NCBI RefSeq assembly: GCF_003334315.1
Contig: NZ_QOWR01000073.1
Length of the DNA stretch: 16,845 bases
Source of the DNA: Escherichia coli
GTDB lineage: Bacteria > Pseudomonadota > Gammaproteobacteria > Enterobacterales > Enterobacteriaceae
Reading direction: 5' to 3' (one strand)
The notes beneath the pieces are model-generated. The model saw only the letters and a list, made by a program, of their open reading frames with translations, searched no databases and was not told the origin of the DNA. Below, one piece after another: positions 10,790 through 12,134 of this stretch; the stretch's first letter is position 1, and every line of letters begins with the position of its first letter. The position numbers were made by a program, and so were the translations under genes.

Positions 10790-10795
10790 AAACAG

Positions 10796-10816
10796 TGCCG
10801 GAGCACGCCTCCGGCA
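10796..10816 (+). other. Stem-loop between yggX and mltC (no U-tract)
   Basis: tgccggag-cacgc-ctccggca, perfect 8 bp stem, 7 nt after the yggX stop; followed by aacttgcataaaaac rather than a T-run, so not a canonical intrinsic terminator. Confidence 0.4.
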
Positions 10817-10853
10817 ACTTGCATAAAAACAAACACAACACGCACCCGGAATG

Positions 10854-11933
10854 ATGAAAAAATATCTCGCGCTGGCTTTGATTGCGCCGTTGCTCATCTC
10901 CTGTTCGACGACCAAAAAAGGCGATACCTATAACGAAGCCTGGGTCAAAGATACCAACGGTTTTGATATTCTGATGGGGCAATTTGCCCACAATATTGAG
11001 AACATCTGGGGCTTCAAAGAGGTGGTGATCGCTGGTCCTAAGGACTACGTGAAATACACCGATCAATATCAGACCCGCAGCCACATCAACTTCGATGACG
11101 GTACGATTACTATCGAAACCATCGCCGGGACAGAACCTGCCGCGCATTTGCGCCGGGCAATTATCAAAACGTTATTGATGGGTGACGATCCGAGTTCGGT
11201 CGATCTCTATTCCGACGTTGATGATATTACGATTTCGAAAGAACCTTTCCTTTACGGTCAGGTGGTGGACAACACCGGGCAGCCGATTCGCTGGGAAGGT
11301 CGCGCAAGCAACTTCGCGGATTATCTGCTGAAAAACCGTCTGAAAAGCCGCAGCAACGGGCTACGTATCATCTACAGCGTCACCATTAACATGGTGACGA
11401 ACCACCTTGATAAACGTGCGCACAAATATCTCGGCATGGTCCGCCAGGCGTCACGGAAATATGGCGTTGATGAGTCGCTGATTCTGGCAATTATGCAGAC
11501 TGAATCTTCCTTTAACCCGTATGCGGTCAGCCGTTCCGATGCGCTGGGATTAATGCAGGTGGTACAACATACTGCCGGGAAAGATGTGTTCCGCTCGCAG
11601 GGGAAATCCGGCACGCCGAGCCGCAGTTTCTTGTTTGATCCTGCCAGCAATATTGATACCGGCACCGCGTATCTGGCGATGCTGAACAATGTTTATCTCG
11701 GCGGAATTGATAACCCAACGTCACGGCGTTATGCCGTCATCACCGCCTATAACGGCGGCGCAGGCAGCGTGCTGCGAGTCTTTTCGAATGATAAGATTCA
11801 GGCTGCCAATATTATTAACACCATGACGCCGGGCGATGTTTATCAGACGCTGACGACCCGCCATCCCTCTGCGGAATCTCGCCGTTATCTTTATAAAGTG
11901 AATACCGCGCAAAAATCCTACCGCCGCCGATAA
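10854..11933 (+). CDS. mltC: Membrane-bound lytic murein transglycosylase C (lipoprotein)
   Basis: ORF 10851..11933 begins MMKKYL...; lipobox LISC shortly after the start; SLT-domain motif region ([25 protein letters not shown]). The start could be 10851 or 10854 (tandem ATGs). Confidence 0.9.
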
Positions 11934-11944
11934 TTCCATTAACC

Positions 11945-11966
11945 GCCCCTGACGATGCTCAGGGGC
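11945..11966 (+). other. Stem-loop immediately downstream of mltC
   Basis: gcccctga-cgatgc-tcaggggc (8 bp stem), 11 nt after the mltC stop, followed by aaaaatg (no U-tract): possible weak terminator or RNA processing/stability element. Confidence 0.35.
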
Positions 11967-11971
11967 AAAAA

Positions 11972-11987
11972 TGTTATCCACATCACA
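11972..11987 (+). promoter_or_regulatory. Candidate CRP-binding site in the nupG upstream region
   Basis: TGTTAtccacaTCACA matches TGTGA-N6-TCACA at 9/10 positions, about 150 bp upstream of the nupG start. nupG is a known CRP/CytR-regulated gene (established knowledge); this site assignment is by eye. Confidence 0.45.
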
Positions 11988-12134
11988 ATTTCGTTTTGCA
12001 AATTGGGAATGTTTGCAATTATTTGCCACAGGTAACAAAAAACCAGTCCGCGAAGTTGATAGAATCCCATCATCTCGCACGGTCAAATGTGCTTTTTCAA
12101 ACACTCATCCGCATCACGATGTGAGGAAATTAAC

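Follow-up and report, generated by a model that had tools for sequence, protein, structure and literature searches.

Gifford & Wallace 1999 (J Bacteriol 181:4223) reportedly found apparent attenuators both between yggX and mltC and between mltC and nupG, and internal promoters in the operon are said to have been described in that work and by Pomposiello 2003. Relative to these reported attenuators, the present case concerns the same organism, the same operon, the same two intergenic regions and the same reading as partial stops, and it does not differ from them in kind; what is added here are the exact stems, a Term-seq end, a comparison of turnover among relatives, an apparent REP ancestry and a link to GcvB and Rho. 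REPs, for example that between malE and malF, are said to act as intercistronic mRNA stabilisers or attenuators (Newbury/Higgins 1987, Espeli 2001). The hairpin that follows yggX (hairpin 1) resembles them in its intercistronic location just past a stop codon, in its GCCGGA...TCCGGC palindrome and in the bona fide REPs found at the orthologous position in sister genera, and a REP-like effect, stabilisation of the upstream segment with partial attenuation, would be expected. It differs from REPs in its length of 21 nt, some 7 nt of the REP interior being missing. Canonical intrinsic terminators, such as the one between nupG and speC, are similar to hairpin 1 and to the hairpin that follows mltC (hairpin 2) in consisting of a GC-rich stem-loop soon after a stop codon; unlike them, the two hairpins have no U-tract on the coding strand, a sub-threshold score and read-through in the majority of cases. 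Stable stem-loops devoid of U-tracts are also a known class of protective mRNA 3′ ends, one that was defined for Rho-dependent transcripts (Dar & Sorek 2018, PMC6061677). Finally, in the discoordinate regulation of operons by sRNAs, adjacent cistrons differ in expression from one transcript, and the yggX-mltC spacer is itself a validated case with GcvB (PMC9299463). The difference here is that the regulation comes from a trans-acting RNA pairing with a CA-rich tract and is no property of the hairpin, whose part may be limited to insulating the cistron upstream.

The window, as we call the whole 16,845-nt stretch of DNA that was analysed, is part of the E. coli chromosome, and its yggX-mltC and mltC-nupG spacers are 100% the same as those of K-12 MG1655, whose genome positions are obtained by adding 3093579 to the window positions. 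The order of the four co-directional genes mutY-yggX-mltC-nupG, as read by the first-pass annotation, was borne out by the ORF list and the MG1655 RefSeq annotation (Table 1). The same annotation had pointed to the two hairpins, with perfect 8-bp GC-rich stems followed by A-rich rather than T-rich sequence, and had taken them for RNA stability or processing elements or partial attenuators. The observation was confirmed, and that reading, which the data support in part, is largely right.

Table 1. Features of the yggX-mltC-nupG segment (window positions)
Feature	Position	Strand	Details and basis
yggX CDS	10514..10789	+	stop TAA 10787-10789; ORF list, MG1655 RefSeq annotation, offset check
Hairpin 1	10796..10816	+	TGCCGGAG-cacgc-CTCCGGCA; 8-bp stem, 5-nt loop; REP-homologous position in sister genera
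GcvB (R1 seed) target, CA-rich, mltC leader	10818..10849	+	core CAAACACAACA 10830-10840, 11-nt exact complement of GcvB R1; predicted duplex
Steady-state RNA 3′ end	10820 (NC_000913.3 3104399)	+	...CUCCGGCAACUU; 4 nt past hairpin 1 stem; Adams et al. 2021 supplementary files 1, 3
mltC CDS	10854..11933	+	annotated start 10854; second in-frame ATG 10851; ORF list, RefSeq
Rho-dependent termination region in mltC (reference coordinate)	11450 (NC_000913.3 3105029)	+	Adams et al. 2021 supplementary file 2
Hairpin 2	11945..11966	+	GCCCCTGA-cgatgc-TCAGGGGC; 8-bp stem, 6-nt loop; no U-tract on either strand
Distal CRP site, nupG promoter	11972..11987	.	TGTTATCCACATCACA; one mismatch to TGTGAN6TCACA
Likely CytR operator	11996..12018	.	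two TTGCAA repeats between CRP sites; conserved; from published CytR motif and promoter architecture
Probable proximal CRP site	12022..12037	.	TTTGCCACAGGTAACA; three consensus mismatches; from -10 spacing (about -41) and TTTGTCACAGGTAACA conservation
Probable nupG -10 hexamer TAGAAT	12060..12065	+	GATAGAAT kept in nearly all nupG-bearing loci; assigned by inference
nupG CDS	12135..13391	+	ORF list, RefSeq annotation
Operon-end canonical terminator	13399..13436	.	hairpin + U-tract, 17 pairs, T8 tail; terminator scan; common to convergent speC

Both stems are perfect, with 6 G-C pairs each. Hairpin 1 begins 6 nt 3′ of the yggX stop codon, and hairpin 2 begins 11 nt 3′ of the mltC stop and ends 5 nt short of the distal CRP site. 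When folded as RNA they are far more stable than shuffled sequences: the -14.6 kcal/mol of hairpin 1 (z -3.1) was equalled by 1 of 200 shuffles, and the -16.2 kcal/mol of hairpin 2 (z -5.3) by none of 200. A search of the 16.8-kb window for perfect GC-rich hairpins with stems of at least 8 bp and loops of 3-8 nt returned 6 matches at 5 loci, against 0.86 ± 1.08 expected under a first-order Markov null. No Rfam 15 covariance model matched the region at the gathering threshold, and a permissive search gave noise (E>1). On the + strand the tail of hairpin 1 reads ACTTGCATAAAAAC... and that of hairpin 2 AAAAATGTTATCC, so that the description as A-rich, with no U-tract, is correct. The stretch ACTTGCATA after hairpin 1 has 3 T in 9 nt, and AAAAATGTT after hairpin 2 has 2 T in the first 8 nt. 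Both elements thus possess the GC-rich stem-loop of an intrinsic terminator and lack the U-rich tract (at least about 5 of 8, directly 3′ of the stem), and a terminator scan of the + strand calls neither.

Read on the minus strand, the stem of hairpin 1 has CTGTTTTTATTTTTT behind it and ranks second among the terminator-like sites of the scan, a point that the first-pass annotation did not mention; in Kluyvera-like genera short GGGCC hairpins are likewise followed by TTATTTTTT on that strand. Hairpin 1 could then be an intrinsic terminator directed against antisense transcription from mltC, its position on the + strand being incidental, which we hold to be very improbable. The T-run is explained by coding, since on the opposite strand it reads as the conserved Lys-Lys-stop codons of yggX (AAAAAATAA), and the sole promoter-like site on the minus strand of mltC does not exceed chance expectation. 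At 31043xx the three Term-seq conditions of Adams et al. 2021 show no minus-strand 3′ end. The sequence fits this identity, which was rejected on the grounds of the coding T-run and the missing minus-strand 3′ end.

On the + strand, published Term-seq data (Adams et al. 2021, PMC7815308) place an RNA 3′ end 4 nt downstream of hairpin 1 in each of the three growth conditions. This end has a Rho score of 0.95, is classed as not Rho-dependent, is insensitive to bicyclomycin (BCM), and has an intrinsic-terminator score of 1.27 against a threshold of 3.0 (PMC7815308). Coverage across the hairpin falls from 212 to 129 reads without BCM and from 312 to 181 with it (PMC7815308), a partial loss of about 40%. 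These observations uphold the earlier proposal of a stability or processing element, or partial attenuator, in the case of hairpin 1. They fit a leaky attenuator as well as an exonuclease barrier, steady-state data not separating termination from differential decay. For hairpin 2 the same proposal has in its favour a strongly conserved structure and against it the Term-seq list of Adams et al. 2021, which holds no curated 3′ end there (no 31055xx entry); coverage of mltC near hairpin 2 is already low in those data. The supplements of the SMRT-Cappable-seq study hold no entry for these operon genes.

Compared with the class of Dar & Sorek (PMC6061677), hairpin 1 is alike in being stable and U-less, with a precise 3′ end directly after it and a C/A-rich, G-poor flank. 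It is unlike it in that the drop is BCM-insensitive and the nearest Rho region lies ~630 nt downstream. The combination of a U-less stem-loop and a 3′ end is seen at hairpin 1 only, none being listed for hairpin 2, and the rise in read-through upon Rho inhibition that marks the class is not seen at 3104399.

The 3′ end could be generated purely by processing, through an RNase E cut in the AU/CA-rich leader, possibly guided by GcvB and Hfq, followed by trimming by PNPase or RNase II and with no termination by RNA polymerase. This is possible, and we do not favour it. In its favour are the distance of just 4 nt between stem and end together with the low intrinsic score, and the fact that CUUGCAUAAAAAC, which is AU-rich, and the GcvB duplex begin at or directly after the end in a spacer that GcvB targets (PMC9299463); U-less hairpins are, moreover, known exonuclease stops (PMC6061677). 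The coverage drop, however, fits weak termination equally well. In the reading that we prefer, the end at 10820 would arise at least partly from exonuclease trimming or differential decay and not from termination in pure form.

Conversely, both hairpins may be weak non-canonical intrinsic terminators in which the hairpin alone releases some polymerases, any effect on stability being secondary; we regard this as a tentative alternative. The partial, Rho-independent drop over hairpin 1 is in line with it, canonical terminators with a hairpin and a U-tract occupy the same sites in some relatives (loci L016, L049 and L075 after yggX; L026, L065 and L080 after mltC), and Gifford & Wallace reportedly termed the elements attenuators. 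Against this stand the few U residues in both tails, the silence of the + strand scan, and the spacing between stem and 3′ end, which is 4 nt where 7-9 nt would be usual. Nor is a 3′ end found at hairpin 2 (Adams et al. 2021).

Directly downstream of hairpin 1, GcvB pairing in the yggX-mltC spacer has been validated by reporter and western assays, mltC being repressed and yggX not (PMC9299463). The target is a C/A-rich site near the RBS that is complementary to the G/U-rich R1 seed, and the tract is nearly invariant among 80 enterobacterial loci. The energy of the R1 duplex ranks only in the top 0.4% of tiles, and therefore it is the published validation that carries the claim of GcvB control. 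Folding with full-length GcvB yielded only a spurious long-range duplex that did not outperform shuffled sequences, and the R1-only analysis was used in its place. At the Rho region within mltC, coverage falls from 258 to 88 reads without BCM and from 274 to 196 with BCM (Rho score 2.10, p 1.3e-6; PMC7815308). The suggestion of the first-pass annotation that the hairpins would permit differential expression of the genes stands as a partial account, three documented contributors having been missed: GcvB (PMC9299463), the Rho region in mltC, and internal promoters.

The reading that we prefer, with a probability of about 0.6, is that both hairpins are leaky Rho-independent attenuators and also 3′-exonuclease barriers at the ends of cistrons, and not full terminators. 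Hairpin 1, a shortened REP-type palindrome, would set the stable 3′ end of the mutY-yggX transcript, so that part of the RNA would end or survive there and the remainder would run on into mltC; in this way it would uncouple the yggX mRNA from downstream events. Farther on, GcvB binds the CA-rich leader at a distance of 2-33 nt from the stem (core 14-24 nt) and lowers the translation of mltC, whose poorly translated ORF is additionally exposed to Rho-dependent termination. Hairpin 2 would act likewise on the small number of transcripts that get as far as its position, capping the mltC message and lessening read-through into the CRP/CytR-controlled nupG promoter that starts 5 nt downstream. If hairpin 2 curbs read-through in this manner, nupG expression would rely mainly on its own promoter. 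Shown by the data are the two structures and their conservation, the Rho-independent 3′ end at hairpin 1, the control by GcvB and the Rho site in mltC. Since its structure is conserved but no 3′ end is listed there, the role of hairpin 2 is one that we infer.

Comparison among 80 enterobacterial loci indicated that a hairpin is retained at both positions while the sequences turn over, unrelated hairpins recurring in every genus at both sites. A strong hairpin follows mltC in 79 of 79 related loci, all at -14.7 kcal/mol or below, with 77 distinct sequences and a median z of -3.95. After yggX a hairpin of -10 kcal/mol or below is present in 71 of 81 loci, and a few lineages have a canonical terminator or a very weak hairpin at this place; across genera the z signal at this site is modest (median -1.26, 37% below -2). 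The mutY-yggX junction, taken as a control, gave a median z of +0.56. A C-G pair of hairpin 2 in E. coli stands as T-A in E. albertii/E. whittamii, a compensatory change, and in nine sampled E. coli variant genomes the changes fell in loops or flanks or yielded G-U pairs, with no broken stem. We also considered whether loci that lack nupG, in which mltC comes last, have a U-tract and those in which nupG follows do not; the idea was rejected, as the loci did not separate cleanly.

These data bear on the notion that neither hairpin has a selected RNA function, hairpin 1 being the decaying remnant of a REP and hairpin 2 a palindrome that is neutral or due to chance, or that they act at the DNA level through gyrase or IHF binding as REPs do. 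The repeat-derived occupants of the two spacers, described below, speak for it; the RNA 3′ end mapped at hairpin 1, the recurrence of unrelated hairpins, the compensatory change and the intact stems speak against it, and we consider it improbable. Liang, Rudd & Deutscher 2015 are said to have linked REPs within ~15 nt of a stop codon to ribosome stalling and tmRNA action, and by analogy both hairpins might mainly tune translation of the upstream gene. The short distances from stop to stem, with medians in relatives of 7 nt (yggX) and 8 nt (mltC), and the REP relationship of hairpin 1 agree with this; ordinary terminators, however, typically sit equally near the stop, and the proposal seems to us doubtful at best. 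The preferred reading, attenuation together with protection of 3′ ends, accommodates the conservation of structure in spite of sequence replacement.

Hairpin 1 aligns column for column with TGCCGGATGGCGCTGCGCTTATCCGGC of Citrobacter, Lelliottia and Salmonella, with an internal gap of ~7 nt and conserved flanks, and REP units occupy its position in these three genera and in Enterobacter. Descent from REP copies is thus indicated by positional homology; the ~35-nt imperfect palindrome with arms of the GCCGGATG...CATCCGGC type is absent, the arms of hairpin 1 being TGCCGGAG/CTCCGGCA. Genuine REPs are present in the window at 4833-4864 and 4925-4955. The heptamer TGCCGGA was discarded as a REP signature; because it is common in the window (16 copies), membership in the REP family rests on positional homology only. 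A megablast search found the 73-nt region around hairpin 1 once per E. coli genome, a search that a 21-nt repeat would escape. Judging from these alignments, hairpin 1 is apparently a REP that has been trimmed. Hairpin 2 does not resemble REPs, and in Enterobacter the mltC-nupG spacer carries other repeat families (boxC-like CCCTCTCCC...GGGAGAGGG). With REP and boxC-like occupants, the yggX-mltC and mltC-nupG spacers can be viewed as landing pads for mobile palindromes.

An extension of this view is that the hairpins are selected insulators: any stable stem-loop 5-15 nt past the yggX (and mltC) stop would shield the upstream mRNA from downstream GcvB/Hfq-guided cleavage and from Rho polarity in mltC, mobile palindromes such as REP and boxC-like elements being repeatedly recruited and trimmed there. 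We think this rather unlikely; if true, REP capture followed by decay would be a general route to operon-internal stability boundaries beside sRNA targets. Both hairpins are previously described leaky stop or stabiliser signals of a well-studied operon, an ordinary finding. The complex transcription of the operon, the CRP/CytR promoter of nupG, the 3′ end after yggX, the action of GcvB on mltC and Rho termination in mltC are already known from the literature or public datasets, and the importance of the result beyond bookkeeping is small. The modest additions are that hairpin, GcvB site and Rho site fit together in that order, that hairpin 1 is an apparent trimmed REP, and that these junctions in Enterobacteriaceae keep a hairpin whose sequence is freely replaced. 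The locus may be a tidy example of conservation at the level of structure over that of sequence at operon-internal boundaries.

The nupG promoter has been described as having two CRP sites and CytR (PMC3454398). CRP input to nupG from 11972-11987, as claimed in the first-pass annotation, agrees with that report (PMC3454398), with the one-mismatch match to the consensus, and with the conservation of the site as (A/G)TGTTAnnnnnnTCAC in Escherichia, Citrobacter and Salmonella, as expected of a CRP-dependent, CytR-repressed promoter. A second CRP-like match at 12120-12135 was rejected, since it corresponds to the conserved Shine-Dalgarno and start region of nupG.

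Two intergenic regions of the co-directional mutY-yggX-mltC-nupG operon each carry a perfect 8-bp GC-rich stem-loop, hairpin 1 after yggX and hairpin 2 after mltC, with the coordinates and stems that the first-pass annotation had described. The window is E. coli chromosome; its part between 10400 and 12200 is matched in all 5426 complete E. coli genomes, several at 100% identity, and is collinear with K-12 MG1655 (genome coordinate = window + 3093579). Seven SNPs distinguish 10400-12200 from MG1655, none inside either intergenic region, so that published MG1655 data are directly applicable. 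Roughly the first 500 nt of the window diverge strongly from MG1655 and hold most of the 383 mismatches; either the source strain is not K-12 or there is a divergent segment near yqgE/yqgF.

Coordinates of the operon genes, the two hairpins and the downstream terminator in the window
Feature	Position	Sequence (arm/loop/arm)	Remark
mutY	end 10486		
yggX	10514-10789		
hairpin 1	10796-10816	TGCCGGAG/cacgc/CTCCGGCA	starts 6 nt past the yggX stop codon
mltC	10854-11933		
hairpin 2	11945-11966	GCCCCTGA/cgatgc/TCAGGGGC	starts 11 nt past the mltC stop codon
nupG	12135-13391		
canonical terminator	13399-13436		common to the nupG end and convergent speC

Folding against dinucleotide shuffles gave -14.6 kcal/mol (z -3.1) for hairpin 1 and -16.2 kcal/mol (z -5.3) for hairpin 2, and the window holds six perfect short-loop GC-rich hairpins of at least 8 bp where a Markov null predicts 0.86 +/- 1.08. 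On the coding strand both hairpins lack a U-tract, as had been claimed, and a terminator scan called neither terminator-like. On the minus strand hairpin 1 is terminator-like, with the tail CTGTTTTTATTTTTT, a point overlooked in the earlier annotation.

Adams et al. 2021 (PMC7815308) mapped RNA 3' ends by Term-seq, and their tables include a curated end at 3104399(+), present three times in the three-condition table. This corresponds to window position 10820, four nucleotides beyond the hairpin 1 stem (...CUCCGGCAACUU). Coverage in 800-nt windows (LB, OD 0.4) falls from 212 upstream to 129 downstream without the Rho inhibitor bicyclomycin (BCM) and from 312 to 181 with it (PMC7815308). The end has a Rho score of 0.95 ('No') and an intrinsic-terminator score of 1.27, where values of at least 3 suggest intrinsic termination (PMC7815308). 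The end and its scores together indicate a real, precise, Rho-independent 3' end at hairpin 1, with majority read-through and no canonical terminator. The proposal that hairpin 1 is a stability or processing element or a partial attenuator, and not a terminator, agrees with the mapped end, the partial drop and the sub-threshold score. In mechanism the nearest known class is that of the protective 3' stem-loops without U-tract described by Dar and Sorek, from which hairpin 1 differs in being Rho-independent.

At the position of hairpin 1, Citrobacter, Salmonella, Lelliottia and Enterobacter have one or two REP palindromes (GCCGGATnnn...ATCCGGC), and other genera have either true terminators or short GGGCC...GGCCC hairpins. 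One of these REPs can be aligned with the Escherichia hairpin, with an internal gap of about 7 nt and conserved flanks, and the hairpin is best regarded as a REP derivative that has been trimmed. At 21 nt it falls outside the definition of a REP, and the TGCCGGA heptamer occurs commonly in the window. The older literature treats REPs as classic stabilisers of mRNA between cistrons and as weak attenuators, a behaviour that matches the one observed for hairpin 1. Genuine REP units are located between hemW and yggM (4833-4864 and 4925-4955), where Rfam calls naRNA4 (CssrE), a REP-derived nucleoid-associated RNA, at 4885-4955(-).

While hairpin 1 itself is variable among 80 enterobacterial loci, the spacer 3' of it (CAUAAAAACAAACACAACACGCACCCGGA) is almost invariant, and the CA-rich mltC leader at 10826-10850 (ACAAACACAACACGCACCCGGA) is conserved far above the adjacent hairpin. 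The near-invariance is explained by the yggX-mltC intergenic region being a validated target of the GcvB sRNA, which acts via its G/U-rich R1 seed and represses mltC but leaves the upstream gene unaffected (PMC9299463). An 11-nt perfect complement to R1 lies at 10830-10840, and the predicted duplex covers 10818-10849. As its sole Shine-Dalgarno-like element the leader has a GGA directly in front of the ATG, which fits the very low mltC expression that has been reported. Adams et al. 2021 (PMC7815308) also mapped a Rho-dependent termination region within mltC at 3105029 (window 11450; Rho score 2.10, p 1.3e-6), where reads drop from 258 to 88 untreated and from 274 to 196 under BCM. About 50 nt upstream of 11450 there is a perfect 8-bp palindrome, CGTCACCATTAACATGGTGACG (11378-11399), whose base 11397 differs from MG1655.

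At the mltC-nupG junction no 3' end at 31055xx, the location of hairpin 2, is found in the same Term-seq tables (PMC7815308); few transcripts would arrive at hairpin 2, given the Rho site inside mltC. Hairpin 2 may cap the mltC message and would lower read-through into the regulated nupG promoter. It ends 5 nt upstream of the distal CRP-like site at 11972-11987, which has one mismatch to the consensus. Further downstream are a pair of TTGCAA repeats and a -10 element, GATAGAAT, all conserved, together with a CRP-like site in the proximal position. This arrangement agrees with what has been published for the nupG promoter (two CRP sites and CytR; PMC3454398), as does the CRP input to nupG suggested earlier. 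Another sequence one mismatch away from the CRP consensus, 12120-12135 (TGTGAGGAAATTAACA), lies across the invariant Shine-Dalgarno/start region of nupG and almost certainly matches by coincidence. Just past the predicted start site, the nupG leader has a weak hairpin followed by TTTTT (12077-12092; GCACGGTCAAATGTGC TTTTTC) with an AAATGT(G/T) core conserved across genera; this element may be an operator for a protein (DeoR?) instead of an RNA attenuator. In E. coli ETEC1747 (NZ_CP122722.1; locus L092) ISVsa5, an IS4-family, IS10-like element, is inserted within hairpin 2 with removal of its 5' arm; by its sequence, the strain is a natural hairpin-2 knockout.

The comparative set comprised 80 loci from Escherichia, Citrobacter, Salmonella, Enterobacter, Klebsiella-relatives, Kluyvera, Kosakonia and others; mutY-yggX-mltC is kept in all 80 and nupG in most. 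After mltC, every one of the 79 usable loci has a hairpin of -14.7 kcal/mol or lower, with its start no more than 15 nt past the stop codon in 64; there are 77 distinct hairpin sequences, and at least four T in the following 8 nt occur in only 10/79. For the 45 nt that follow the mltC stop codon the median z is -3.95 (81% below -2). After yggX, a hairpin reaches -10 kcal/mol or lower in 71/81 loci, with a weaker z-score signal (median -1.26; 37% below -2), and the mutY-yggX junction, used as a control, has no structure (median +0.56). Comparison of E. coli with E. albertii/E. whittamii reveals a compensatory change in hairpin 2, from C-G to T-A. Of 5425 E. coli genomes, 4439 have an identical 73-nt region around hairpin 1; for the region around hairpin 2 the figure is 2922/5185. 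Nine variant genomes were sampled, and their changes fall in the loop or flanks, or turn the closing G-C into G-U. The conserved property is structure rather than sequence. In Enterobacter/Lelliottia loci (L033-L064) tandem boxC-like palindromes (CCCTCTCCC...GGGAGAGGG...GGGTGAGGG) enlarge the mltC-nupG spacer to 280-616 nt, which shows that this junction is colonised by different families of mobile palindromes.

The hairpin 1 end, GcvB, Rho termination inside mltC and the separate nupG promoter amount to at least four layers of differential expression in the operon. The first-pass annotation had anticipated differential expression, for which the hairpin 1 end and the nupG promoter speak, and left out GcvB and the Rho termination; the hairpin observation is real and its interpretation was mostly right. 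Further layers are the promoters reportedly mapped by Gifford and Wallace (J Bacteriol 1999;181:4223), with transcription starts ahead of mutY, inside mutY and directly upstream of nupG, and an internal SoxS-dependent promoter in mutY reportedly described by Pomposiello in 2003. Gifford and Wallace also reportedly described apparent attenuators in both the yggX-mltC and mltC-nupG intergenic regions. Every element is already documented in the Term-seq, GcvB and CytR/CRP papers together with the 1999 work; the hairpins are not new. An abundant minus-strand Term-seq 3' end (about 82,000 reads in one condition) is located at window position 9442 (NC_000913.3 3103021), antisense to the first mutY codons and upstream of trmB; it may represent an attenuated leader of trmB or else a short antisense transcript.
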